Shown here: positions 1 through 13,606 of the stretch, piece after piece
How the letters are laid out: the number at the start of each line of letters is the position of its first letter
Position numbering within the stretch: position 1 is the first letter of the stretch
IMG/VR virus record: IMGVR_UViG_2740892442_000006
Source of the DNA: a virus
Lineage: Duplodnaviria; Heunggongvirae; Uroviricota; Caudoviricetes
Reading direction: 5' to 3' (one strand)
Length of the DNA: 16,507 nt
Position numbers and translations under genes: made by a program
The notes under the pieces: generated by a model
Told to the model about the DNA's origin: nothing
Database searches by the model: none
What the model saw: only the letters and a program-made list of their open reading frames with translations

Positions 1-114
1 ACCCTATGCATCGAAGAGTATTATTCTGCTACCGGAATTTATAATTATGATGATGCTGATGAGCAAACTGAGTTACTTAAAAATGCATTAAGGGACTATA
101 AAATGGCTCACTAG
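1..114 (+). CDS. Possible 3' end of an upstream ORF that continues beyond the window start; product unknown
   Basis: Frame 1 is open from position 1 to a TAG at 112-114 (37 codons, ...LRDYKMAH*). Too short to assess further. Confidence 0.3.
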   Translation, partial: TLCIEEYYSATGIYNYDDADEQTELLKNALRDYKMAH

Positions 115-183
115 TGAAAAGAGGCTAACTTGTATTAGCTCAAACTTGATCTTACACTTTTACTGCATAGGGCTTAACCTAAG

Positions 184-218
184 CTGACAGTCCGCTCTGT
201 GCCAGAAGCGGACGTTAG
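184..218. repeat. Palindromic repeat, copy 1 (internal hairpin GTCCGCT-N10-AGCGGAC)
   Basis: Read directly: CTGACAGTCCGCTCTGTGCCAGAAGCGGACGTTAG. The 7-bp arms at 190-196 and 207-213 are exact reverse complements. An inverted copy lies at 4194-4228 and a partial direct copy at 3007-3023. Confidence 0.7.
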
Positions 219-288
219 CCATAGTGAATAATGCACAATGCAGTGACTGGATACAGATATGGGAAACTATTACTTTTAAAGTCCGACA

Positions 289-316
289 TTCTTGATTCTT
301 GATTCTTGATTCTTGA
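289..316. repeat. Tandem heptamer repeat (TTCTTGA)x4, followed by a degenerate fifth unit TTACTTA at 317-323
   Basis: Read directly: four perfect head-to-tail copies, about 120 bp upstream of the ORF at 435. Confidence 0.9.
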
Positions 317-434
317 TTACTTAATCTAAGTAACCGTGCATTTTTATCCAGCTTCAACTATCCAATGAACCAGTATGTTCTGTAACATAAAAGCAGGCTA
401 TTTAGCCACAATCAATTGATAATTAGGCACTTAT

Positions 435-1487
435 ATGAAACTAAAAAAAATGCTTGAAATGGATTTCATCAAGGAGTTTCAAGAGCACCTAGAAACTGAC
501 TTTGAGCATGAACTCTTACATGCCAGTCTTCGCAACTATTGTTCTCATGGTAATCCTCTGCGCTTCAACAACTTTGCATTTGCAATACGTGAGCTAATAA
601 ATCATGTGCTGAAACGACTGGCACCAAATGACAGAGTTATGGCGTCTCCATGGTTCACTAAAAACAAAAATAACGCCACTGTTACCCGTAAACAGCAAGC
701 AAAATACATCGCCCAGAAGCATATACCCGATCAACTTCTTGATGATGTAGCTATCGAAAGACTAGATGATGGTATAGCATGGTTCAATAAAAACTATTCT
801 TCTTTAAACGATTACACCCATATTAGCGAACATTCATTTGATAGTAACCCCAAACAGTTTTTTGAGAGTGCTAAACTAATAATAGAACTGTGTAACATAA
901 TATTCGATACCTTCGATGAACTTGAGCGTGTTATTACCGAATCAATAATCGAGGAAGTACAGAATGAAGTTACTGACATCACAATGAATAATATCCCTGA
1001 CGAACTGGATATATTATCTTCACAAACAACTGTTGATTGGTGCAATGTTGAATCCATTGAGTTGCTGAACCTTGACGAAAATTATATTTATCTTTTGGTG
1101 CGCGGAATAGTTGAAATTACTAGGCAATACGGGCGTGGTGAGGATTACTTTGCACAGCAAGATTCTTATCCCTTCAAGTTTGCAGTCTCTATTCGCACTG
1201 ATAATTTCAATTTAATAGCACCATTACTTAACACTGTAGTAGTGGATACAGGCTCATGGTATGACGATGGCGAAGGATCTGCTCATTATGACACAATTTA
1301 TACAACCTCCAGATTTTTGGAGATGATCTCACATATAAAAATTAAACCAAAAACAAAGAGAAGATTGTTTCCTGAGCTTAGTACAGTAGTAACACTAGGG
1401 ATTCATGAAAGTGAAGGTATATCAGAATCGGTCGTCCCAGAAATATGTCATCTAAATCAAGGAAGCTTCAATTTAACTGAATTTTAG
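435..1487 (+). CDS. Hypothetical protein (cargo ORF A, 350 aa); no family recognised; contains an R-x4-H motif (RNYCSH, residues 33-38)
   Basis: Long ORF with an ATG start and a weak AGG upstream; first gene of a co-directional cluster in the AT-rich island. No ATPase or other catalytic signature recognised. Confidence 0.75.
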   Translation: MKLKKMLEMDFIKEFQEHLETDFEHELLHASLRNYCSHGNPLRFNNFAFAIRELINHVLKRLAPNDRVMASPWFTKNKNNATVTRKQQAKYIAQKHIPDQLLDDVAIERLDDGIAWFNKNYSSLNDYTHISEHSFDSNPKQFFESAKLIIELCNIIFDTFDELERVITESIIEEVQNEVTDITMNNIPDELDILSSQTTVDWCNVESIELLNLDENYIYLLVRGIVEITRQYGRGEDYFAQQDSYPFKFAVSIRTDNFNLIAPLLNTVVVDTGSWYDDGEGSAHYDTIYTTSRFLEMISHIKIKPKTKRRLFPELSTVVTLGIHESEGISESVVPEICHLNQGSFNLTEF

Positions 1488-1503
1488 GATTATCTATGGA
1501 GAG

Positions 1504-2442
1504 ATGAAAATGTCTAATAAGATCTATAGCCTACAAAGAATGCCTACTGAAGCATTTAAGATATTTGCAATGTCATTGCCACATGGGCCTAATTATGGTA
1601 ATGCGGAATTACTTTCCGCTTGGTCAAATGAAAAAGGGCTTGGATATGGTGCAGTCCTTCAATACAGCAAAAATTCATATGGCCTTGTTGTGCTCAGGCG
1701 ACGGGAAGATTATGTGCTGGTACCTCTCGAGCATGAGATGTGTTTTACCGAGCAGGAGGCATTGGTGCATCTTGATAAGCACCTTTCAGCCGGAGGAGAT
1801 TTATTACCGATTCCATCTGGGCAATCACGTAGAGCCCGACTGGATCATGTTGGTGAGCGGAATGTTTGTCAGGCATTTATACAATTATCGTCCACGATAA
1901 AGTACCGAGGAGCATTTCATTTAATTGTCGAGCTCTATCTGGCATTACCAAAACCTGATGATAACTTCAGAACCGATCTCCAGACCCAAGGATTCAACTC
2001 TAGAATCTGGGAGCTATACCTTTTCGCATGTTTTAAAGAGCAGGGAATTAAAGTTTTTCAAGATTATCCATCTCCGGATTTTATGCTCATGAACGGTAAT
2101 AACAAAGCATATGTTGAGGCGGTCACCGCGAATCCAACTGGTCCGGGCAGCCTAAAGTTGCCTCAAACACAATTCCCCCCCGGAGATCGATTAGCTCGCA
2201 CAGCAGGTGATATGGCAGCACGGTTCGCTAAGACCATCAGATCTAAACTCCAGAGAAAGTATGAAGAACTACCGCATGTTAAAGGATTTCCATTTGCAAT
2301 CGCTATAGCGGATTTTAGCGGTGGGGGCACTATGGTCTGGTCTCGCGAGTCACTTCCAACCTATTTGTATGGGCAAACCGCACATACAGTCAAAACATCC
2401 AAAGGTATGAAGCTGCTGCATTATCAATTGAAAAGCTTTTAG
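1504..2442 (+). CDS. Hypothetical protein (cargo ORF B, 312 aa); family unknown
   Basis: ATG at 1504 preceded by GGAGAG at 1496-1501, 16 bp after the ORF A stop. The downstream frame-0 ORF overlaps its 3' end, so B and C may be one gene split by a frameshift. Confidence 0.75.
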   Translation: MKMSNKIYSLQRMPTEAFKIFAMSLPHGPNYGNAELLSAWSNEKGLGYGAVLQYSKNSYGLVVLRRREDYVLVPLEHEMCFTEQEALVHLDKHLSAGGDLLPIPSGQSRRARLDHVGERNVCQAFIQLSSTIKYRGAFHLIVELYLALPKPDDNFRTDLQTQGFNSRIWELYLFACFKEQGIKVFQDYPSPDFMLMNGNNKAYVEAVTANPTGPGSLKLPQTQFPPGDRLARTAGDMAARFAKTIRSKLQRKYEELPHVKGFPFAIAIADFSGGGTMVWSRESLPTYLYGQTAHTVKTSKGMKLLHYQLKSF

Positions 2443-2504
2443 GCCATGTAAATATTCCGGCAGGACTATTTAACCACCCAGAGATTGAAAATTTATCTGC
2501 TATC

Positions 2505-2903
2505 TTGTTTAGTAATGCTGGAACATTGCCAAAATTCCAGCGAATGGCAATCCAAGCTGAATTTTCCTCACCTATTGTGAAAGCCCGCAGGGTTGGGATT
2601 TTATTTGATAGGACTGAAGGGGCCTTGGAACCAATTGACTTCGATCTAGATATTCAATCGCCTGAATATATTAATCTTTGCGATGGCAAAGAATTTTGGT
2701 GTTTTGAACTTGAAGTATTTCATAACCCTAATGCTGCTTATCCAATGTCCCATGATTTCCTGCCGGGGGCAACACATTGGTTTGAACACAATGGAGAGAT
2801 CATCTGTGAGACCCAATGGAAAAACCAGGTACTTGCATCAGTAACCGAGTTTAGTATTGTTCCAGATGTCGCCGATAAACTCAAAGCCAAGGAAAAGCCG
2901 TGA
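2505..2903 (+). CDS. Hypothetical protein (cargo ORF C, 132 aa as listed); possibly the C-terminal continuation of ORF B
   Basis: The frame is open from 2319 and reads like protein (...YEAAALSIEKLLGHVNIPAGLFNHPEIENLSAILF...), but has no ATG/GTG/TTG before the TTG at 2505 and no convincing Shine-Dalgarno before 2505 or the ATG at 2544. Confidence 0.5.
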   Translation: MFSNAGTLPKFQRMAIQAEFSSPIVKARRVGILFDRTEGALEPIDFDLDIQSPEYINLCDGKEFWCFELEVFHNPNAAYPMSHDFLPGATHWFEHNGEIICETQWKNQVLASVTEFSIVPDVADKLKAKEKP

Positions 2904-3006
2904 TTGCTTGATGCAAGCATATTCTTGAAAGAAGAAAATTGACAAGATTTAAAACTAATAATGAAGGGGGGAATGTTACGAGGTTGTCAGGGCTGCAACA
3001 GCAGCC

Positions 3007-3023
3007 CTGTGTCAGAAGCGGAC
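3007..3023. repeat. Partial direct copy of the palindromic repeat (CTGTGTCAGAAGCGGAC), just after an 8-bp-stem hairpin at 2988-3009
   Basis: 16 of 17 bases match copy 1 at 197-213. Hairpin CAGGGCTG-caacag-CAGCCCTG read directly. Sits between ORF C and the ORF at 3080. Confidence 0.6.
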
Positions 3024-3079
3024 ATTTTAAGCATTCGAGTGTAAGGTCTGTTTTTTAATTTGTAATTTTAGGAGGTAAC

Positions 3080-4033
3080 ATGCCAAAGAAAAGACGGTCT
3101 ATTAGCCAGGTAAAAGAAGACATTTCAATCAGGGTTCTGCGGGAAAAACTACCTCGCGAATGGGTCGTACATAGCTATGGCGCTGACTATGGTATTGATT
3201 GCGTTGTTGAATTATTTGATTTTATTGATGACAGTGAAAGTATTGCAGAAACCCTTGGTGAAAACTTCTTTGTACAACTAAAATCTTCAGATTGTATTGA
3301 ATATTGTACACGTAAAGCCTATGCTCGTGGAAATGTAACCAAAGGAAAGTTAACAGAAGATAAAAGCGATTTTGTCGAAATCCCTGTCGCAAAATTCAAG
3401 TTAGATATATCAGACATTTTGACTGTTCAGTCTATAGGTATTGCAATTCCAGTATTATTGATACTAGTTGACACTAATACAGAAAAGGCATTTTTTATTT
3501 GCCTTAATGATTACATAGATAAAGTTCTCATACCAGAAGACCCGAATTATTCTAAAAAAGACTCAAAGACTATATATATACCTCTTGAAAATGAAATTCT
3601 GGATGATGAAGATGCGCTTGTTCCATTACGTGCATATGGTAAAAGATCAAAAATGTATGGCGCATTCTCACTTTTTAACTATCAATTAAAAGAAATAAAC
3701 CGATTACAAGGTAAAGCGGCCGTACAATTTCCTGTCTCTTTCGATGAAGCTATAGAGATGGTAAATAACTTTATTGTAATTGCTCTTAGACAAGATATAT
3801 GGTCTGGTCATGAATTTTGGAAGCCGATGGTATCGAGCCAAAAGGAGTTGATCCAACTTCAAATAGATATTGATAAAGAGGTAAAACCTGAACATTATGA
3901 ACATTTTTTGAGTTACTGTTCCGAAGTGGTTTGGCATAAGTTAACAAATCTTTCAAATATGTATGAGGAGCTTGTTAGAGAATGGTTCATGCCAACCTTG
4001 CTAGCGACATTAACATCAGCCCGCCCTAAATAA
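3080..4033 (+). CDS. Hypothetical protein (cargo ORF D, 317 aa) with an N-terminal PD-(D/E)xK-like nuclease-fold motif candidate (DUF4365-like by recollection)
   Basis: Strong RBS AGGAGGT at 3068-3074, six nt before the ATG. N-terminal motifs in order: DYGID, VVELFDF, FVQLKSS, consistent with a D...E...QxK restriction-endonuclease-like core. Family assignment is from memory, not a search. Confidence 0.8.
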   Translation: MPKKRRSISQVKEDISIRVLREKLPREWVVHSYGADYGIDCVVELFDFIDDSESIAETLGENFFVQLKSSDCIEYCTRKAYARGNVTKGKLTEDKSDFVEIPVAKFKLDISDILTVQSIGIAIPVLLILVDTNTEKAFFICLNDYIDKVLIPEDPNYSKKDSKTIYIPLENEILDDEDALVPLRAYGKRSKMYGAFSLFNYQLKEINRLQGKAAVQFPVSFDEAIEMVNNFIVIALRQDIWSGHEFWKPMVSSQKELIQLQIDIDKEVKPEHYEHFLSYCSEVVWHKLTNLSNMYEELVREWFMPTLLATLTSARPK

Positions 4034-4193
4034 TAATAGCAATGCTACGCAAAAGCATCCTAGCCCTAAATTCTTAAATAAGGGCTTCATATCAAATTGA
4101 AGCCTTTGTGAACAATAGAAACAACACTAAAAGACACCCCTATCACATTTAGTTGAATAGAAAAATAATAATGCGCCCACGACGATACAATTA

Positions 4194-4228
4194 CTAACGT
4201 CCGCTCCTCGCTCAAAGCAGACTGTCAG
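4194..4228. repeat. Palindromic repeat, copy 3, inverted relative to copy 1
   Basis: The reverse complement of 4194-4228 matches 184-218 at about 30 of 35 positions, by hand alignment. A further ACTGTCAG motif lies at 4253-4260. Confidence 0.65.
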
Positions 4229-4293
4229 ATTTGATTGCATTTTGCCTACGCAAACTGTCAGTTCGAGCCTGAGCTAATACAGCTAACTGGATG

Positions 4294-5397
4294 TTAGCCT
4301 TTTTTAATTTTATTTTTAGATTGTTCAATGTGATGATTTAACACTTCTCTCTTTGCCTCTTCATAGGTTAGCTCTCCATTGATTACCTTATTTTTTATTT
4401 CATTAAAAAATGAGGAGCCTTTGGGATCTTTACTTGATAAAAAAAGACTGGCTTCAGCTCTCCGAAAAGCTTCTTTCCTTGCTTCTATAGAAAATGAATT
4501 AGCAGGGTTATTTTTGTTCATAAGTTGAAGTGCCTTATTATTTATATTCGGGATGTTTTTATCTACAAGAGTTAGTCTTAACTCCGAGAATTTATTTCCT
4601 GATATTTTATAACACTGATTTTCATTTTTTTCAATATAAAGAGATTTGCTTTCTGCGCTACCACATGTCGTAGATGTTCTTGCATCAAGAAAAATAAACT
4701 TTTCTTGAAATCTTTCAATATATTTCATTGCTGTCATGCTAATAATAAAAAGAGCAACTGACACAGCAAAAAGGGATAAGCCTGATACTAAACGATTAAA
4801 ATTAAATTTCCTTTTAATAACTAATGAACTGGCTAGATTGACCATGTTATAGGGGACCATAATTATGAGTCCTATTAATATTATTTTTTCAGGAAGATTG
4901 TTCACTTGTATATGATGTTGAGCCAAGTTTCCAATATATACTGAAATCATAGAGGATATTACTATTTTTGCTGGGGATACATCTCGCAAAAATATGTATA
5001 TATAGACTGTAGTTGCACAAATCATTGCTCCTATTGGAAATGAGAGCATGAAAGCATAAGCTAATGTTGAGTAATTAAGATTTTCTGGGGCTATACCATA
5101 AGCTATGTCAAGCTTAAACTTTGCGATCCATAAGCATACTGAATATGTAAAGCCAGTTACGCCCCACTTAACCACTGTATTATTAAATACTTTATTTAAT
5201 AAATCACGATATCCTATGTATACACTGGTTAATAAAGCTATAGATGATAGAAAAATTGGAGCGGCAATGTATATATTTTCTAGCCATAATGGGTTTTCTA
5301 CAATCAAGTATCCAAAAGGTATTAAGTATATTATAGCCAATAGTTGAGGGTTGTTTAATTTGGATGATGCGTCAACCAAATTATTTTTATATTCCAT
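4294..5397 (-). CDS. Multi-pass inner-membrane protein (about seven hydrophobic segments in the N-terminal ~225 aa, then a ~140-aa charged soluble C-terminal domain); function unknown
   Basis: 367-aa ORF with AGGA about 7 nt upstream of the ATG. Starts 9 bp after the stop of the integrase at 5407-6480, on the same strand. Very AT-rich. Confidence 0.8.
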   Translation of the reverse strand: MEYKNNLVDASSKLNNPQLLAIIYLIPFGYLIVENPLWLENIYIAAPIFLSSIALLTSVYIGYRDLLNKVFNNTVVKWGVTGFTYSVCLWIAKFKLDIAYGIAPENLNYSTLAYAFMLSFPIGAMICATTVYIYIFLRDVSPAKIVISSMISVYIGNLAQHHIQVNNLPEKIILIGLIIMVPYNMVNLASSLVIKRKFNFNRLVSGLSLFAVSVALFIISMTAMKYIERFQEKFIFLDARTSTTCGSAESKSLYIEKNENQCYKISGNKFSELRLTLVDKNIPNINNKALQLMNKNNPANSFSIEARKEAFRRAEASLFLSSKDPKGSSFFNEIKNKVINGELTYEEAKREVLNHHIEQSKNKIKKG

Positions 5398-5406
5398 ATA
5401 ACGTCC

Positions 5407-6480
5407 TTATTTCAACTTTAACGCCAAATCTTCAGCTTTTGGATGATAATACCGCATTAGCATTCTTGGATCTTTATGTCCTGTAATTTTGGTCAGTTCA
5501 TGCATAGGGAAAATTTCAGCAAGTCGAGAAGTTGCTTCATGTCGAAGGTCATGAAATCTTAAATCTTTAAGGAATGATTCATCACATAATGAGTTTGTTT
5601 TCTCGTATCGTTCTCTGGCTCGTTTTACAGCTCGGTCAAAAGCTCGGGTAATCGCGTCTGCACGCATATCAAAAACCTTATCAGCAGCTGGCTTAGAATG
5701 TTCCTTGAGACTGGACAGTATCGTGATGGCTTTCGTTGATAAAGGGACATCGCGGGCATTACCATTCTTAGTATCCGGCAGATGTGCAACTCGCCGATCA
5801 AGATCGATAAAGCGCCATCGAAGATCTGCGATTTCGCTACGGCGCATGGCTGTCTCTAACGCCAGAAGAATGATTGCTGGCAATACTAATGAATGTGTTG
5901 CGGCGATGATATGTTCGATCTCGTTGGCTATTTCCTTTCCTGACGTAACACCGGTTTTCTCAGAAACTACAGGCAGCGCTTCCAGGCGTCTGGTCCTGGA
6001 GTTCTTGGGTTGAGGTTTGCGAATGGCCTCTACGGGGTTCAGCAGGCTCTCCATGCCCCATTCTTTCCGCGAAACGTTGAATACATGAGAAAGTAAGGCC
6101 AAACGCCTTAAAACGGTTGCAGGGGCATAGATTTTCAACCATTCATCTCTCAGCTTGGCGACATCGGCACTCCTGATGCTGGCCATATAGTTTTTCGCCA
6201 GCTGAGTGCCTTTTAGTATCCGCACCAATGATTGGTCTTGCACTGCCCCTTTTTTGTCGGGAACAATCTCTTTTTCATATCGCGTTAGGGCTTCATACAA
6301 TGTCGTAGATTCCGCTTCGCTGCGGCTAAGCCAAACTCCTCTCGCCATTTCTGACTCGATCATTTTGGCCCAAGCTTCTGCTTCTACTTTGGTGTTAAAG
6401 GTTTTGGTTTGAGAGGGAAAACCTCGTTTACGGATTTGAGCTTCCCATTGGTAGTTACCACGTTTGCGTATAGTCGCCAT
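5407..6480 (-). CDS. int: Tyrosine-type site-specific integrase (island integrase)
   Basis: C-terminal catalytic signature FHDLRHEATS...MRYYHP (H-x-x-R-H box and tyrosine). The ORF track starts at a TTG at 6510; the ATG at 6480 (MATIRKRGNYQWEAQIRKRG...) is the more likely start. Confidence 0.9.
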   Translation of the reverse strand: MATIRKRGNYQWEAQIRKRGFPSQTKTFNTKVEAEAWAKMIESEMARGVWLSRSEAESTTLYEALTRYEKEIVPDKKGAVQDQSLVRILKGTQLAKNYMASIRSADVAKLRDEWLKIYAPATVLRRLALLSHVFNVSRKEWGMESLLNPVEAIRKPQPKNSRTRRLEALPVVSEKTGVTSGKEIANEIEHIIAATHSLVLPAIILLALETAMRRSEIADLRWRFIDLDRRVAHLPDTKNGNARDVPLSTKAITILSSLKEHSKPAADKVFDMRADAITRAFDRAVKRARERYEKTNSLCDESFLKDLRFHDLRHEATSRLAEIFPMHELTKITGHKDPRMLMRYYHPKAEDLALKLK

Positions 6481-6568
6481 TTCTGTCTGATTCCTAACGA
6501 ACTGTGGCAATATTGTGGCAAAAAATCCATTTAAATTCGATAGGTATTGATTTTACAAGATCAATTTA

Positions 6569-6617
6569 CGCATTCGTAATGCGAAGGTCGTAGGTTCGAC
6601 TCCTATTATCGGCACCA
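6569..6617 (+). tRNA. 3'-terminal 49-nt fragment of tRNA-Thr (anticodon CGU); not a complete tRNA; likely an att-core direct-repeat copy
   Basis: Anticodon stem-loop with CGT at 6575-6577, T-arm GGTTCGACTCC, 3' acceptor strand and CCA. Matches the 3' part of enterobacterial thrW as I recall it. The upstream sequence has no 5' acceptor strand (GCCGATA) or D-arm. Confidence 0.8.
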
Positions 6618-6631
6618 TTTAAATCAATAAG

Positions 6632-7795
6632 TTACACATCATTAGTACCTTCCTTATTTTTTGACTGGGACAAATTTGGGACCGATGGGTTCAGGATCGA
6701 GTCTATTTGCCGTGCGTGTTCGGTAAGGTGATTAGGTGCAAGGTGAGCATATCGACGAACCATTTCGATAGACTCCCACCCTCCCATTTCCTGTAACACT
6801 GACAACGGGACTCCGGCTTGAACCAGCCAACTTGCCCAGGTGTGTCTCAAGTCGTGAAATCTGAAATCATCAATACCAGCCCGTCTCAGCGCCGCTTTCC
6901 AGGCTGTGTTTGCGTCATACCGCATCTTCCTTACTGTTGGCGCTTTCGTTCCGTCTGGTTTGGTACAGCTTTCCTTGTACACAAATACCCAACGGTGATG
7001 ATTCCCGATTTGTTTTTTCAATACGCGACATGCAGTATCATTCAGCGCAACGCCAATTGCGCGGTTTGATTTACTCTCTTCCGGGTTTATCCATGCCACC
7101 CGGCGCTGCATATCTATTTGTTGCCATTCAAGGTTGATGATGTTCGAGCGTCTTAAACCTGTTGCCAGTGCAAATTCAACAACAGACTTTAATGGCTCCG
7201 GACATTCATCAATCAGCCTTTGTGCTTCATGGGGCTCCAGCCAGCGGATCCGTTTATTCTTTGGTTGAGGCACTTTAATAATTGGTGCCTTATCCAGCAT
7301 TTTCCATTCACGCTCTGCGGCTCTTAGTAGGGCCTTTATAAATGAAAGATGCGTAGCCTTCGTTGCAACGGACGCTGGTTTTGGCGTGTATTCTGGAACA
7401 GGTTTCCCTTTTTTTCTGCATGCTTCTGCCCTGAGTTTCCAGTTTTCCTCATGACGCCGGTTCGTCATTTTCTGCATTGCTGAATAAATTTTTGATTCAG
7501 TAATGTCTCTTAGTTGCATTCCTGCGAAATGTTGAAGCCAGAATCCGATCCGGCTTTTGTCATCGTCCAGTGATTTTTTATGTGCTTTCTCTTCAAGCCA
7601 CCTGACACACGCTTCCTCGAACGTTATATCAGGTATTTCACCAAGTTTGCTGACCCGCCATGCTTCAGCCTTTAGCTTGTCATGGAGTTCTGTCGCCTGC
7701 CTTTTGTCCTTTGTTCCAAGAGACTGTTTAAATCTTTTACCGTTCGGCAATGTGAAACTGGCGTACCATATTTCACCTCTGCGGAAGAGTGACAT
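6632..7795 (-). CDS. int: Lambdoid (P22/SfV/e14-type) phage integrase
   Basis: N-terminus [34 protein letters not shown] is typical of this enterobacterial prophage integrase group; catalytic [10 protein letters not shown]...VRRYAHL. GAGGAA RBS. The 3' end lies 15 bp from the tRNA-Thr fragment. Confidence 0.92.
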
Positions 7796-8022
7796 TTTCT
7801 TTCCTCTGTTATGCCATCACCCGCGCTCACCTGGACAGTATGCAGCGGAGACTGAAGAGCCGCAATGCAGGCTTGTCGTGTTGTGAGGTAAGGAGATTTA
7901 TTCTTAGTGGGATCTTTGCGTGTTGCCTGAAGACGCCCTGTGCGTATCCAGTTAATGGCAGTCGGTCTGGATATCTTGAGAAAATGACAGGCCTCATCGA
8001 GTGTGAGGCTGTATGGCTCCAT
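7672..8022 (-). CDS. xis: Excisionase / AlpA-like HTH protein (about 117 aa from the ATG at 8022)
   Basis: [31 protein letters not shown] is a helix-turn-helix excisionase-like N-terminus. The ATG overlaps the upstream stop (ATGA). The 3' end overlaps the integrase start by about 124 bp in another frame, so the true stop is uncertain. Confidence 0.6.
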
Positions 8023-8327
8023 TATTTCACCTCTTGCTGTGACATTGTTGAAAAATGGATACCAGCTCGTTGCTGCCAGACGATCCAACCGAGAGTCATA
8101 TCCCATGCCATGTATTCGTTATCGCCGTTTTTTGCTCTCCGACGATCTACTAAGTCACCGAAACGCTTTTCCATGAATAATTCATAAGCTTCGCGTTCAT
8201 CTGGTTCTACTTCCAGCGATAGGAGTGCGATTTCATAAGCACGGCGCTCAATATCGTCTCGCACGTCAAGGCTGCTGATACGCTCTTTAATTTCTTTAAT
8301 CAGTTCTTTGTCGGTAAAAGTGATCAT
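8022..8327 (-). CDS. Hypothetical prophage early protein (101 aa)
   Basis: Coding-like codon usage; start overlaps the upstream stop (TAATG) and its stop overlaps the xis start, indicating one coupled operon. Confidence 0.65.
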   Translation of the reverse strand: MITFTDKELIKEIKERISSLDVRDDIERRAYEIALLSLEVEPDEREAYELFMEKRFGDLVDRRRAKNGDNEYMAWDMTLGWIVWQQRAGIHFSTMSQQEVK

Positions 8328-8689
8328 TATGCTCCAGCCTCCGGTGCTTTTGGCATTATTGCCCAGTGAGTGATATTGACGTTTTCAAGGTCCCCGACCT
8401 GAAATGTCCACTGCCATTCTCCGGTTTCTTTTTGTCCCCAGGTGTACCAGAGAGAACGCCTGCCAATTAGCCAGCCTTCTCCGTTAGCATCGAATAACAA
8501 AACACTTTCATTTGCTGGTGGCAGTTCAGCTGACACTGGTATTACTTTGTTTTCCTGTGCTGCACATTTAGCTTCAAGCGCATCGAATTTACGCACCAGG
8601 TATTCAGCATCTGTTTCATTTACTTTCAGATCTCGCGGTACACATCTCCCACGAAGAAACCCTTCCATTTCGAAAACATTCATGCGCAT
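8327..8689 (-). CDS. Hypothetical prophage early protein (120 aa)
   Basis: ORF in the same minus-strand operon, overlapping both neighbours by a few bases. Confidence 0.65.
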   Translation of the reverse strand: MRMNVFEMEGFLRGRCVPRDLKVNETDAEYLVRKFDALEAKCAAQENKVIPVSAELPPANESVLLFDANGEGWLIGRRSLWYTWGQKETGEWQWTFQVGDLENVNITHWAIMPKAPEAGA

Positions 8690-9243
8690 TTGCGTAACTC
8701 CGATAACTCGTTAAAACGTTCCATAAACATCCCGTAGGCATGGCCCGGTGCCTGTGGAATCACTTTGAACATCTCTGTTGCCGGGATACCTTCCAGTACA
8801 GGCCAGAAAGAGCCATCATCAAGCCCGAGATCGCGGCGTTCGGTTGCCAGCATAATGAGATCGGCATATTTCACTGGCGTGCTCATAACAGGAGGTAACC
8901 CGTATTTCTCACGTATTACGGCGTCTATTTTTTCTTCCATCCGTTTATAGTCAGGAAGAAGTCGTTTCAGTGGTGCGGGGATGTCCTGGCAATATGCTTC
9001 TGTTGCATCATGCATTAAAGCTTCAAAAGCAAATTCCTGTGGCACCAGCTGGCTGCAAAGCACCGCATGTTGGGCGACACTGTAGAAGTGTGAAAGATGT
9101 CCTGCAAAGCGACAGATATTTGAAAGGGAAACCGCGATATCGTTAATAACGATGTCGTCTTTATTTATCCTGTCATAATAAAAATGCTTCCCGGAAAAAG
9201 TTTTAATAAATGACATTTTGTTCTCCACGTATATGCGCTGCAC
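8680..9243 (-). CDS. HD-domain phosphohydrolase (YfdR-like, as found in enterobacterial prophages)
   Basis: Ordered H...HD motifs (SVAQHAVLCSQL then ALMHDATEAY) in a protein of about 187 aa; first gene of the leftward operon ending in xis and int. Confidence 0.65.
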   Translation of the reverse strand: MQRIYVENKMSFIKTFSGKHFYYDRINKDDIVINDIAVSLSNICRFAGHLSHFYSVAQHAVLCSQLVPQEFAFEALMHDATEAYCQDIPAPLKRLLPDYKRMEEKIDAVIREKYGLPPVMSTPVKYADLIMLATERRDLGLDDGSFWPVLEGIPATEMFKVIPQAPGHAYGMFMERFNELSELRKCA

Positions 9244-9340
9244 CGCGCTGAATTCGGGTAAAAGGAAGCCCTCACCGTCCGGCGATTATTGAGTCAATTA
9301 CATTTCCATAAATGCCCCCGTAGGGCGGTTAGTTTCTCCA

Positions 9341-9427
9341 CAAAACAGAGAAGAACACCTGCGGTGGCAGCCGCCCGGATGGATTGGGTTATGAGCCCGT
9401 CGTCCGGTGATGCTCTTCTCTGTTTTG
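9341..9427. repeat. Inverted repeat: 17-bp arms (CAAAACAGAGAAGAACA at 9341-9357 and its complement at 9411-9427, one mismatch) around a 53-bp spacer
   Basis: Read directly, in the 435-bp region between the divergent minus-strand and plus-strand prophage operons. Confidence 0.7.
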
Positions 9428-9473
9428 TAAAAAGGACGGTATCCGCCTGACGGCTAATCAGGCATATCACCAG

Positions 9474-9677
9474 ATGGTGAAGCTGGGGATCGTCGAGCAG
9501 CGCGAACGATACAGCCGTACCGCGATTAACAACATCAAAAAATTCTGGTCGCTGACAGCGAAAGGCTGCATGTTCGGCAAGAACATCACCAGTCCTGCAA
9601 ATCCGCGCGAGACGCAGCCGCATTTCTTCGAATCCCGATTCCCTGAGCTGTTAAAGCTGCTCGATACCGTTCATTGA
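9474..9677 (+). CDS. Possible small ORF (67 aa) just upstream of the DUF968-like gene
   Basis: ATG start, coding-like third-position bias, stop 1 bp before the next gene; no recognisable family. Competes with a minus-strand ORF that I rejected. Confidence 0.3.
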   Translation: MVKLGIVEQRERYSRTAINNIKKFWSLTAKGCMFGKNITSPANPRETQPHFFESRFPELLKLLDTVH

Positions 9678-9678
9678 G

Positions 9679-10674
9679 GTGACCGTGAGAGCACTACTGA
9701 CCCCTGAAATAGCCCCGCGTATGGGGATCGTATTGTTCAGACCCGGTTCAGAGCTGATGCCCCTGTTTATGCAGGGGCGTGTCCTGCTGGAGCCTGAGCC
9801 GGAACGTTATTCATCTTTCGCCAGTGGTGCCGTTCCCGCGGCATCACAACCGCTGGCGGATGATCCTGCCGTTCGAGCCGTGTTCTGCAATGAGGCAGTG
9901 ATCCGTCGTGCTGGTGGCGTGGAATGTCTTGAAAGCTGGTTACTTCGTGAAAAGGGCTGTCAGTGGCCTCATTCCGACTGGCACAGCGAGAACATGACCA
10001 CAATGCGACACGCGCCGGGCGCGATCCGTCTGTGCTGGCACTGCGATAACCAGCTGCGCGATCAGTTCACGGAACGGCTGGAATCAATGGCAACGGATAA
10101 CTGTGCCCGCTGGGTGTTGTCTGTTGTGCGTCGGGATCTCGGTTTTGATGACAGTCACGTTGTGACAATGCCGGAACTGTGCTGGTGGCTGATTCGTAAT
10201 GACCTGGCGGATGCCTTACCGGAAAGTGCAGCCCGTAAGGCACTGAGATTACCGAAGCCTGTTGTGCCGTCTGTCACCCGGGAAAGTGACCTTGTGCCTT
10301 CGGTTCCTGCCACCAGCATCATCCAGGATAAGGCGAAAAAGGTGCTGGCGCTGAAAGTGGATCCGGAGTCGCCGGAGTCTTTTATGTTACGCCCAAAACG
10401 TCGCCGCTGGGTTAATGAAAAGTACACGCGCTGGGTTAAGACACAGCCGTGTGCATGTTGTGGAAAGCCTGCTGATGATCCCCACCACCTGATAGGCCAC
10501 GGTCAGGGTGGGATGGGTACAAAAGCGCATGACCTCTTTGTGTTGCCTTTGTGCAGAAAGCATCACGACGAGCTGCATGCGGATACCGTGGCATTTGAAG
10601 AGAAGTATGGCTCCCAGCTGGAGCTGATATTTCGTTTTATCGATCGTGCGCTGGCAATAGGCGTACTGGCGTAA
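9679..10674 (+). CDS. Prophage protein with a C-terminal HNH-like Cys/His cluster (DUF968-like)
   Basis: 331-aa ORF with a GTG start. C-terminus CACCGKPADDPHHLIGHGQGG...CRKHHDELH is a zinc-finger/HNH-type signature. Sits immediately upstream of Q, as in the nin region of lambdoid phages. Confidence 0.65.
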   Translation: MTVRALLTPEIAPRMGIVLFRPGSELMPLFMQGRVLLEPEPERYSSFASGAVPAASQPLADDPAVRAVFCNEAVIRRAGGVECLESWLLREKGCQWPHSDWHSENMTTMRHAPGAIRLCWHCDNQLRDQFTERLESMATDNCARWVLSVVRRDLGFDDSHVVTMPELCWWLIRNDLADALPESAARKALRLPKPVVPSVTRESDLVPSVPATSIIQDKAKKVLALKVDPESPESFMLRPKRRRWVNEKYTRWVKTQPCACCGKPADDPHHLIGHGQGGMGTKAHDLFVLPLCRKHHDELHADTVAFEEKYGSQLELIFRFIDRALAIGVLA

Positions 10675-10687
10675 GTGGAGAACGAGC

Positions 10688-11416
10688 ATGAACCTTGAAG
10701 CTTTACCAAAATATTACTCCCCAAAATCTCCAAAATTGAGTGATGACGCACCGGCGACAGGCTCGGGTGGTTTAACAATTACAGATGTGATGGCTGCGCA
10801 GGGGATGGTGCAGTCGAAAGCACCGCTTGGGTTTGCCTTATTCCTGGCAAAAGTTGGTGTTCAGGATCCTCAGTTTGCGATTGAAGGTCTGCTCAATTAC
10901 GCGATGGCACTGGATAACCCGACATTGAACAAATTGAGTGAAGAAATCCGGTTACAGATCATCCCTTACCTTGTGAATTTTGCCTTTGCTGATTATTCCA
11001 GGTCTGCGGCAAGTAAGGCTCGCTGTGAGCATTGTGCTGGTACTGGATTTCATAATGTATTGCGCGAGGTGGTGAAACACTCCAGAAGCGGGGAATCTGT
11101 TATCAAGGAAGAGTGGGTGAAGGAACTATGTCAGCATTGTCATGGTAAGGGAGAAGTCAGCACAGCGTGCAGAGGGTGTAAGGGTAAAGGTATTGTCCTG
11201 GATGAAAAAAGGACCCGGCTTCATGGCACGCCTGTTTATAAGATTTGTGGGCGTTGCAATGGAAACCGATTTAGCCGTTTACCAACCACACTGGCGCGGA
11301 ATCATGTCCAGAAGCTGGTACCAGACCTGCCGAAGATCTGGGAAAAGTCACTTTCCGCCCGTCCATCACGGCTTATGTGGTGGGAGATGACTGCTTTGAC
11401 CAGCGCGATCGCCTGA
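10688..11416 (+). CDS. Q: Late-gene antiterminator Q homolog (lambda Q family); C-terminus probably altered by a deletion junction
   Basis: N-terminus MNLEALPKYYSPKSPKLSDD...TDVMAAQGM parallels lambda Q as I recall it, followed by CxxCxGxG zinc-finger repeats. The last ~30 codons overlap an N-like reading frame. Confidence 0.75.
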   Translation: MNLEALPKYYSPKSPKLSDDAPATGSGGLTITDVMAAQGMVQSKAPLGFALFLAKVGVQDPQFAIEGLLNYAMALDNPTLNKLSEEIRLQIIPYLVNFAFADYSRSAASKARCEHCAGTGFHNVLREVVKHSRSGESVIKEEWVKELCQHCHGKGEVSTACRGCKGKGIVLDEKRTRLHGTPVYKICGRCNGNRFSRLPTTLARNHVQKLVPDLPKIWEKSLSARPSRLMWWEMTALTSAIA

Positions 11417-12531
11417 TTGACGCGCTGAATAAACCCGGTCCCGGCACGCTTGTCCACCCGACATACGGTGAGTTGAAAGTCTGTGTTGACGGGGAAGTTC
11501 GGGTCAGCACATCGAAGAGTGAAGGGCGTATTGTCCGCTTTGACCTGAAGTTTGTCGAAGCGGGAGATCTCTCTTACCCCACATCAGGCGTGGCGACGGC
11601 GCAGACGCTGATGTCATCCTGTTCTGCACTGGATGACTGCATCAGTGACAGCTTCAGCGGTTTCAGTATCGATGGCGTGGCAGATTTTGTGCAGAACGAC
11701 GTCGTCGGTAATGTCGGCACAATGCTTGGGTATGTTTCTGATGCGATGAAAGTGGTGGATTCTGCCGTATCGGATGCCGCCAGGCTGTTGCAGGGGGATA
11801 TCTCGGTACTTCTTCCGCCGCCATCGTCAGGCAAAAATTTCGTTGAGCAGGTGCAGAAAATGTGGCGTACCGGGAAACGCCTTTATGGTAACGCCAGCGA
11901 CCTGGTCACCATGATCAAAACGCTTTCCGGTGTCAGCCTTGGCAGCGATCTGCAACCGCGCGGCGTCTGGAAAACGGACAGTAAAACCACCGCCACGGCG
12001 ACGCAGCAGCGTAACGTGGTTGCCAGCACCCTTCGTACGACCGCAATCAGCGAAGCGGCGTATGTCGTCACACGATTGCCTGCGCCCACAACTTCCGCGG
12101 TGATGCAGAATGCCACAGTGGGGCAGTCAACAACACCCGCGCAGAGCACCGGCTGGCCTTCTGTCACGCATCCGGCACTGAACAATGCACCGGCGGTGAA
12201 AAACACGGTTGACCTGCCAACGTGGGAAGAACTGACCGACATTCGCGACACACTGAATACGGCAATTGATAAGGAGTTGTCCCGTACAACCAGTGATGCG
12301 CTGTTTCTGGTGCTGCGCCGGGTGAAAGCAGATCTGAATGCGGATATCAACACGCGCCTTGAACAGTCTGCACGGATCATTCAGCGCACGCCGGATGAGG
12401 TTTTACCCGCGCTGGTGCTGGCGGCGACCTGGTTTGATAACGCGGCGCGTGACGCGGACATTATCCGGCGTAATGCCATTACGCATCCCGGCTTTGTGCC
12501 GGTGATCCCTCTGAAGGTGCCAGTGCAATGA
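11377..12531 (+). pseudogene. Mu gp43 (N)-like DNA circularization / tail protein, 5'-truncated
   Basis: Similar in length and position to Mu N, but about 100 residues shorter than I recall for the family. The frame is open from 11275 and overlaps the Q 3' end. GTG start only. Stop overlaps the next start (ATGA). Confidence 0.6.
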
Positions 12532-13606
12532 ACGACAATGTCACGCTACGGGTAAATGGCCGGGAGTGGAATGGCTGGACATCGGTGCGCATCGGTGCCG
12601 GTATTGAACGGCTGGCGCGGGATTTCAGTGTGGAGATCACCCGCCAGTGGCCGGGAGATGAGGGTATCACCACGCTTCAGCCGCGCATTAAAAACGGTTC
12701 AAAAGTGGAAGTGCTGATTGGTGATGAGCTGGTGATCACCGGCTGGGTGGAGGCGACGCCCGTTCGTTACGATGCCCGTTCGGTCAGCACCGGTATTGCC
12801 GGACGTAGTCTGACGGCTGACCTGATTGACTGTGCAGCCGAACCGACACAGTTTAACGGACGCTCGCTGGTGCAGATTGCGCAGGCGCTTGCTGCGCCTT
12901 TCGGCATTGAGGTGGTGAACAGCGGTGCGCCGTCGGGTGTTATTCCTGATGTTCAGCCTGATCACGGTGAAACGGTGATTGAGGTAATAAACAAAATACT
13001 CGGTCAGCAGCAGGCGCTGGCTTACGACGACCCGCACGGCAGGCTGGTGATTGGCGGTATTGGCTCAACGCGGCACATACCGCGCTGGTACTTGGGGAAA
13101 ACATCCTTTCCTGCGATACGGAGAAGAGTATCCGGGAGCGGTTTTCTGTTTACCAGGTGGCGGGGCAGCGTGCCGGAAACGACGATGATTTCGGTGAGGT
13201 CACCACCACCGCGCTGCGGGCCCGCACAGAGGACGCATTTATTGCCCGTTACCGTCCGATGTATATCAGGCAGACAGGGCAGGCCACGGGGGCAGGCTGT
13301 ATTGCGCGTGCTGACTTTGAAGCCCGACAACGGGCGGCGCGGACGGATGAAACCACCTATGTGGTGCAGGGCTGGCGACAGGGTAACGGTACGCTGTGGC
13401 AGCCCAACCAGCGGGTGATTGTCTTTGATCCGGTCTGTGGTTTCGACAATACCGAACTGCTTGTCTCGGAAGTCACGTTTACTCAGGACCAGAACGGCAC
13501 CCTGACGGAAATCCGTGTCGGCCCGCCTGATGCTTATCTGCCTGAACCCGAAGCCCCCGGCGCGCGGAAAAAGAAAAAAGCCAGAGTACAGGAGGACCCG
13601 TTCTGA
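12528..13606 (+). pseudogene. Mu gp44 (P)-like baseplate hub / tail protein, interrupted by a frameshift near 13065-13080
   Basis: Frame 0 (12528-13418) and frame 2 (open upstream of 13157, to 13606) each read like protein: ...GGIGSTRH then ...TALVLGENILSCDTEKSIRERFSVYQVAGQ... The combined length of about 359 aa fits the family. Confidence 0.6.

Follow-up and report, generated by a model that had tools for sequence, protein, structure and literature searches.

The long xis–int overlap of an SfV-like prophage remnant follows the normal layout of P22-type recombination modules

The int–xis sequence of Salmonella phage P22 reportedly comes from Leong et al. 1986 (J Mol Biol 189:603). Its GenBank record (X04052) places int at 43..1206 (387 aa) and xis at 1083..1433 (116 aa), with a 124-nt overlap in the same frame relation as in the DNA described here. 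PMC4111918 tabulates P22 Xis among recombination directionality factors, with 116 aa and 14 kDa, in an entry that cites Mattis 2008, and a passage of PMC7498355 cites work in which the protein was purified and shown to bend att DNA. In the records of Shigella phages SfIV and SfV, int and the xis stop are annotated as in our sequence, and SfIV has been obtained by induction from a lysogen (PMC3851460). Phage lambda resembles our locus in that xis lies upstream of int, the two genes are co-oriented with overlapping ends, and Int is a heterobivalent tyrosine recombinase. Lambda Xis introduces a bend into arm DNA and shares an interface with Int (PMC7498355), and the cII-dependent pI promoter sits within lambda xis (PMC2951348). 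However, the lambda genes share only 23 nt (int 27812..28882, xis 28860..29078) as opposed to 124 nt, and lambda Xis is 72 aa long (PMC4111918) as opposed to 116 aa.

We examined this junction in a window of 16,507 nt, by which we mean the whole stretch of DNA that was analyzed. A sequence-only reading had noted that an excisionase-like open reading frame (ORF) runs about 124 bp into the integrase gene, and the ORF list bears this out, the segment shared with the helix-turn-helix ORF being 7672..7795, exactly 124 nt. Both genes lie on the minus strand. The int gene (6632..7795) encodes a P22/SfV-type tyrosine integrase of 387 aa with an ATG start at 7795, and xis (7672..8022) encodes a P22-type excisionase (recombination directionality factor) of 116 aa with a TAA stop at 7674..7672. 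The dual-coding segment (7672..7795, minus strand) specifies Int residues 1–41 together with Xis residues 77–116 and the xis stop, in frames offset by one base. Read in the xis frame, the minus strand gives GAA AGA AAA TGT CAC TCT (E R K C H S), whereas the int frame yields A ATG TCA CTC (M S L), which places int at +1 relative to xis; the xis TAA straddles Int codons L41 (CTA) and K42. The ribosome-binding site of int, GAGGA (7802..7806, minus strand), is located 6 nt 5' of the ATG and consists of xis codons E73–E74. The ribosome-binding site of xis, GAGGTG (8028..8033, minus strand), was read from the sequence, and the P22 record marks one at the equivalent place. Upstream of xis, a yfdT-like ORF (8022..8327, minus strand) ends in a TAA stop that overlaps the xis ATG (8020..8022) as TAATG.

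The ORF tool had placed the start of xis at the first ATG, 8106, giving an ORF of 144 aa (7672..8106). The true start is the ATG at 8022 (MEPYSL..., 116 aa) and not 8106. The GAGGTG site and the TAATG junction both speak for the ATG at 8022; moreover, it aligns with residue 1 of P22 Xis, an in-frame stop is found directly 5' of the equivalent ATG in several homologous loci, and NCBI's PGAP gives the same 351-nt xis coding sequence (CDS) in the closest genome, that of E. coli TUM10008. The SfIV and SfV records differ in that xis is annotated with 444 nt (4073..4516 in the compared pieces), from an ATA start lying 94 nt inside the upstream ORF. The 351-nt xis equivalent to that of P22 is far better supported than this 444-nt version.

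Comparison at the nucleotide and protein levels placed the locus firmly among these phages. Int matches Pfam Phage_integrase (PF00589, E=3e-48) and Xis matches Pfam HTH_17 (E=3e-8); sequence searches tie Xis only to HTH_17 and, marginally, to the PDB chain of mycobacteriophage Pukovnik Xis. Over 6600..8350, nucleotide identity is 99.7% to SfIV, 99.1% to SfV and about 80% to P22, and int–xis with the next two genes shows 98.8–99.7% nucleotide identity to SfIV, SfV and SfII (NC_022749, U82619, KC736978). The numbers of amino acid differences in Int and Xis are 0 and 0 relative to SfIV (387/387 Int residues identical), 6 and 2 relative to SfV, and 39 and 15 relative to P22 (348/387 Int residues identical). 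The alignment of Xis with P22 Xis is gap-free over 116 aa (87% identity) with the same length and ends, and settles where the authentic stop lies: it is the end of the ORF at 7672..7674, the position at which the 116-aa P22 Xis also stops. The ribosome-binding features are in the same places as in P22, and an identical 23-bp att core within thrW is shared with P22; SfIV and SfV have the same att core and P' side. On the other hand, the xis stop is TGA in P22 and TAA in the window, and P22 is a complete podovirus, whereas the window holds a deleted SfV-like remnant with Mu-like tail genes. With an integrase of ~387 aa, a P22-like Xis, a 124-nt overlap with a +1 shift and the thrW att core all present, the locus is a P22/SfV-type Xis–Int module in every feature testable.

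Scanning one genome per species yielded 45 loci, and the 41 with an integrase directly downstream were used for counting overlaps. The overlap is either 124 nt (Xis of 115–117 aa) or 145 nt (Xis of 123 aa) in 41/41 loci, with a constant frame relation and Xis identity down to 43%. The int ATG is at the equivalent position in all 41, preceded by GAGGA, GGAGA or AAGGAG built from xis codons, this Shine-Dalgarno (SD) sequence being located 5–8 nt upstream of the ATG in every case, and no premature xis stop occurs in any of them. Full-length Xis homologues of 115–123 aa with 59–87% identity are found in Salmonella, Enterobacter, Cronobacter, Citrobacter, Pantoea, Erwinia, Edwardsiella and Serratia. 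Loci of the 145-nt class have R instead of L at Int residue 41; a CGN arginine codon at this position would abolish the xis TAA, so that Xis would extend by seven residues. The sequence-only reading had left open either a genuine extensive overlap or a shorter or altered excisionase. Homologous xis–int pairs with the same overlap and both proteins intact, which that reading had named as its refutation, exist in P22, SfIV, SfV and 41/41 loci; they show that the overlap is no anomaly and speak for a genuine overlap, and the idea of a shorter or altered Xis falls away.

Several 64-aa "helix-turn-helix" proteins from other E. coli genomes (P0083–P0091) correspond to xis frameshifted after about residue 43, and their tails match an alternative-frame ORF of the window (7827..7997). 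We considered them as authentic short excisionases and rejected this, since their C-termini are the −1 frame of xis, marking them as frameshift mutants. They show what a truly altered xis looks like, and the xis of the window is not of this kind.

We regard 7672..7795 as very probably a native feature, namely the dual-coding junction within a site-specific recombination module of the P22/SfV type. That it could instead be a decay product of a cryptic prophage, in which a lost xis stop, a frameshift or an assembly error left an altered excisionase, is hardly credible, even though the element is a heavily deleted remnant and frameshifted xis derivatives do occur in other E. coli genomes. Aligned with E. 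coli TUM10008 (NZ_CP135658.1), the window shows no mismatches but five 1-nt deletions (at ~405, ~2411, ~4532, ~9322 and ~13071) that split other ORFs and, judging from the alignment, look like assembly indel errors. However, none of the five (0/5) falls within 6572..9322, and the overlap is therefore not an assembly artefact; furthermore, the Xis and Int proteins are 100% identical to those of SfIV, and the position of the xis stop is common to P22 and the 41 loci. A shorter overlap would also result if Int started at the TTG at 7750, giving 372 aa, a 79-nt overlap and 15 initial codons that are untranslated in the int frame. PGAP annotates this start in TUM10008 (WP_001132557.1), and a 372-aa NCBI protein cluster (P0126) has 2009 members. 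Nonetheless, we find the TTG start very unlikely. The TTG is not conserved, because an L at residue 16 is confined to the E. coli/Salmonella group, with T, S or A at this position in the others, whereas the ATG equivalent to 7795 with its SD is present in 41/41 loci. Residues 2–15 (S[LI]FRRGxxWYASFT) are conserved, with a pN of 0.24 below a pS of 0.51 at codons 2–11, and a TTG start would remove predicted beta strands 1–2 of a confidently predicted sheet. Most homologues are called with 387 aa, as is Int in the P22 record.

To gauge chance, we fixed the Int protein and redrew codons from its own usage. The xis frame remained open across the overlap in 61% of redraws for the window; over 29 loci the same procedure left it open in 42% on average, and the other alternative frame in about 3%. 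An open xis frame in one sequence alone is no more than chance, and we judge the overlap to be real because it is conserved across lineages and identical to that of characterized phages, not because the frame is open. Divergence was more informative. For 29 distinct loci, synonymous divergence in the Int frame amounts to 0.56 within the overlap and 0.75 in the rest of the gene, the former lying below all 299 non-overlap windows of 40 codons (minimum 0.62, median 0.76), while Int amino acid divergence in the overlap is ordinary across the 29 loci. Third-position entropy of int is likewise reduced (0.98 in the overlap vs 1.35 elsewhere). The suppression is centred on Int codons 2–31, with the lowest value (0.37) at codons 22–31, which correspond to Xis residues 98–107, and the last 10 codons of the overlap are at background level. 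Int codons 42–48 show a pS of 0.54 where overlapped (the 145-nt class) and 0.73 where not, based on few sites.

The naive pN/pS in the Xis frame, 1.1 in the overlap, was set aside as uninterpretable because Xis third positions are Int second positions, and an OLGenie-style count of NN, NS, SN and SS changes was used in its place. By this count, the Int-frame dN/dS in the overlap is 0.38 (95% 0.26–0.52). Purifying selection on the Xis tail at Int-nonsynonymous sites was not significant (dNN/dNS 0.85, 95% 0.57–1.30; phantom-frame control 0.94), but changes that are synonymous in Int while altering Xis occur about 30% less often in the overlap (0.54) than in the phantom-frame control (0.77). These results therefore mark Int as the dominant frame, with a constraint on the Xis tail that is weak or mixed and at most moderate. 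Overall, evolution of the overlap is clearly dominated by the Int frame, and evidence for constraint in the second frame is suggestive but not decisive.

Structure prediction divides Xis into two parts. Residues 1–60 (7843..8022, minus strand) form a predicted winged-helix DNA-binding domain (AlphaFold2 pLDDT 78–93) in the order strand-helix-helix-strand-strand-helix. The best fold match in the PDB is Pukovnik Xis (4j2n), with a TM score of 0.74–0.78 over 53–55 residues, followed by other small winged-helix directionality factors or MerR-like proteins (BldC, RacA and P2 Cox), all of which share the fold of residues 1–55. These Pukovnik-like proteins differ in being ~55 aa long, without the 55-residue linker and tail, and in having about 25% identity to Xis of the window. 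Since the best match has ~55 residues, the tail is an addition to the standard small fold of recombination directionality factors. Residues 61–116 (7675..7842, minus strand) make up this low-confidence linker and tail (pLDDT 39–58), which is predicted to be largely disordered apart from one predicted helix at residues 89–102 (7717..7758), and which contains a basic LLxQRTKGR motif. The motif is kept in homologues of only 34–38% identity, yet its counterpart in the other frame is the Int motif SLGTxDKRQA, which it mirrors. PDB sequence searches with Xis and with a profile of the Int N-terminus returned only chance matches (erbB-2, vasohibin-binding protein), Pukovnik Xis appearing at E=1.4. Xis residues 1–66 compared with protein-cluster representatives gave only 39 representative clusters, which say little about the origin of the tail.

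The N-terminal domain of lambda Int binds arm-type sites. In Int of the window, residues 2–51 (7643..7792, minus strand) are predicted to form three strands (2–6, 9–15 and 21–25) and a helix (31–51), with block-mean pLDDT of 74–86 over residues 1–40 and 60 over residues 41–50 (AlphaFold2). Thus, the overlap would encode the sheet and the helix start of the Int N-terminal domain. The full-length Int model was poor beyond residue 165 owing to a shallow alignment, and the N-terminal part alone was used. Foldseek returned full-length lambda Int structures (1z1b, 1z1g and 5j0n) as top matches for this domain, at a marginal level (E=1.3e-3, TM 0.22), and Pfam DUF6538 was found at the Int N-terminus below threshold in 17/17 homologues (24.6 bits vs a 27-bit cutoff). 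By analogy with lambda Int, we infer that the domain may bind arm-type sites.

Expression of the two genes can be pictured as follows. xis and int are co-oriented and would, in intact phages, be co-transcribed within one early-left transcription unit. Xis would consist of an N-terminal winged helix and a tail whose last 40 residues derive from the DNA encoding the first 41 Int residues, read one base off. Since the int start lies within xis, ribosomes translating xis cross it and terminate 124 nt inside int, and Int would be translated independently from its own ATG (7795) through the GAGGA made of xis codons. A lambda-style pI promoter or cII box inside xis was rejected. The xis gene of the window, unlike that of lambda, has no recognizable internal pI-type promoter in consensus scans: the TTGCN6TTGC cII/C1 box was absent from the minus strand of 7795–8330 with up to 1 mismatch allowed, and no sigma-70 consensus was found on the minus strand of 6400..9800. 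We also considered an RNA structure hiding the int ribosome-binding site, which would imply coupling via xis translation, and rejected it as well, the SD of int being unpaired in the predicted mRNA fold and the fold no more stable than shuffled sequence (z=0.06). With no internal promoter and no significant mRNA structure, Int would most simply be translated independently from the transcript of the early-left promoter in intact phages.

As to origin, overprinting of the Xis tail on an ancestral Int frame is probable, because this type of N-terminal domain occurs in integrases without an overlapping xis. The neighboring integrase (5407..6510), whose N-terminus is similar, lacks an upstream xis. 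The older and dominant frame would be that of Int, and the Xis tail would be an extension overprinted onto it; literature searches for discussion of this overlap or of overprinting found nothing relevant.

What the tail does is a separate matter, on which two readings seem about equally possible to us, neither held more than tentatively. The 40-residue tail could be a functional peptide overprinted on the 5' end of int, contacting Int or tuning the Int:Xis ratio. It could just as well be a tolerated read-through, the functional excisionase comprising only the first ~60–75 residues and the remainder being conserved merely via the underlying Int sequence. The solved Xis proteins of this fold, at just ~55 aa and aligning with residues 1–55, fit a tolerated read-through, as do the low pLDDT of the tail (39–58), the non-significant dNN/dNS (0.85) close to the phantom-frame 0.94, the naive pN/pS of 1.1, the average probability of 0.42 for an open frame given the Int protein, and the mirroring of the Int motif by the conserved LLxQRTKGR. 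The absence of premature stops (0/41) is harder to reconcile with it, as synonymous sites of Int have almost reached saturation between clades (pS about 0.75); for five deep clades, a rough estimate of the chance is 0.42^5, about 0.01. The rarity of Int-synonymous, Xis-altering changes (0.54 vs 0.77) also stands against a mere passenger, along with the reduced third-position entropy, the strongest suppression at Int codons 22–31, and the lower pS at codons 42–48 solely in the overlapped class (0.54 vs 0.73; few sites). A functional tail draws on the lowest Int-synonymous divergence of the gene, the lack of premature stops, and the co-variation of the 124- and 145-nt classes with Int residue 41. 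If the tail is functional, the 124-nt stretch would encode both the N-terminal (arm-binding) domain of Int and a segment of Xis, which would make the two partners one inseparable evolutionary unit.

The att core, ATGCGAAGGTCGTAGGTTCGACT, lies at 6579..6601 on the plus strand, 30 nt downstream of the int stop, and its 23 bp match the P22 attP/thrW core exactly; the core sequence was taken from PMC8022706, and no exact match is expected by chance. A second core, differing by 1 mismatch, lies 19 kb to the right in E. coli TUM10008 (3,867,503..3,867,525), outside the window, and is preceded by 189 bp of the SfIV P arm at 96% identity (36101..36289 in the TUM10008 piece compared). With one core intact beside int and another 19 kb away, excision appears plausible if Int and Xis are supplied or expressed. 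It would be limited by expression and not by the overlap, because the phage regulatory region has been lost. The sequence-only reading linked the overlap to the question of whether the remnant could still excise; this link found no support, since the inducible SfIV has Int and Xis proteins of 100% identical sequence. In TUM10008, PGAP annotates a "tRNA-Ser" of 112 nt at 6506..6617, in which ARAGORN finds no tRNA and Rfam gives a sub-threshold match at 6543..6610 (22.3 bits vs 29). The 3' half of thrW, with anticodon CGT and the att core, is joined to unrelated 5' sequence there, making this "tRNA-Ser" a pseudo-tRNA.

The surroundings are those of a remnant. Collinearity of the window with SfIV is limited to 6572..9325, and no repressor, replication, lysis or head genes are left. 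SfIV, SfV and SfII carry gtrABC next to attP and a full genome, whereas gtr and most phage genes are gone from the element in the window. In TUM10008, genes for restriction-modification, a DUF6650 protein and AbiTii stand at the expected gtr position, the remnant and this defence cargo being bracketed by both att sites. Deletion junctions fall within 9250..11400: the SfIV DUF2303 gene is lost at ~9322 and is followed by a KilA-N fragment and a DUF968 gene. A Q-type antiterminator is truncated at ~11330 and fused to a DNA-circulation (Mu gp43-like) gene. In this way, the deletions bring the KilA-N fragment, the DUF968 gene and the truncated Q gene up against Mu-like baseplate genes. Among the 1-nt deletions, the one at ~2411 splits an ORF pair (1504..2442 and 2505..2903) that is a single 464-aa PGAP CDS in TUM10008, the one at ~13071 splits a baseplate pair (12528..13418 and 13157..13606), and the one at ~4532 lies inside an ORF at 4294..5397.

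At the head of a different island to the left (435..6510) stands the second tyrosine integrase (5407..6510, minus strand), directly adjoining the att/tRNA fragment. This island contains a gene with a pPIWI-associating nuclease domain (435..1487), a DUF4365 gene (3080..4033) and a VbhA-family antitoxin, along with a large ORF that has no annotation. In TUM10008, trb conjugation genes disrupted by IS1 follow further to the left. The arrangement resembles a hotspot for tandem islands at thrW, and some of the genes are candidates for defence.

In summary, the long xis–int overlap is the normal P22-type layout, known from GenBank ever since the P22 sequence of 1986. We see in the dual-coding segment a minor, tidy case of overlapping genes with one dominant frame, that of Int, and whatever mild novelty there is concerns a possible dual function of this segment. 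Automatic annotation pipelines or records that, to accommodate the overlap, shorten int (the 372-aa PGAP version from TTG) or lengthen xis (the 444-nt version of the SfV and SfIV records) are probably wrong. In P22/SfV-like prophages, a long overlap of this kind is not to be taken as pseudogenisation. At this locus the recombination proteins are intact, and the mobility of the remnant depends on expression and on the att sites.
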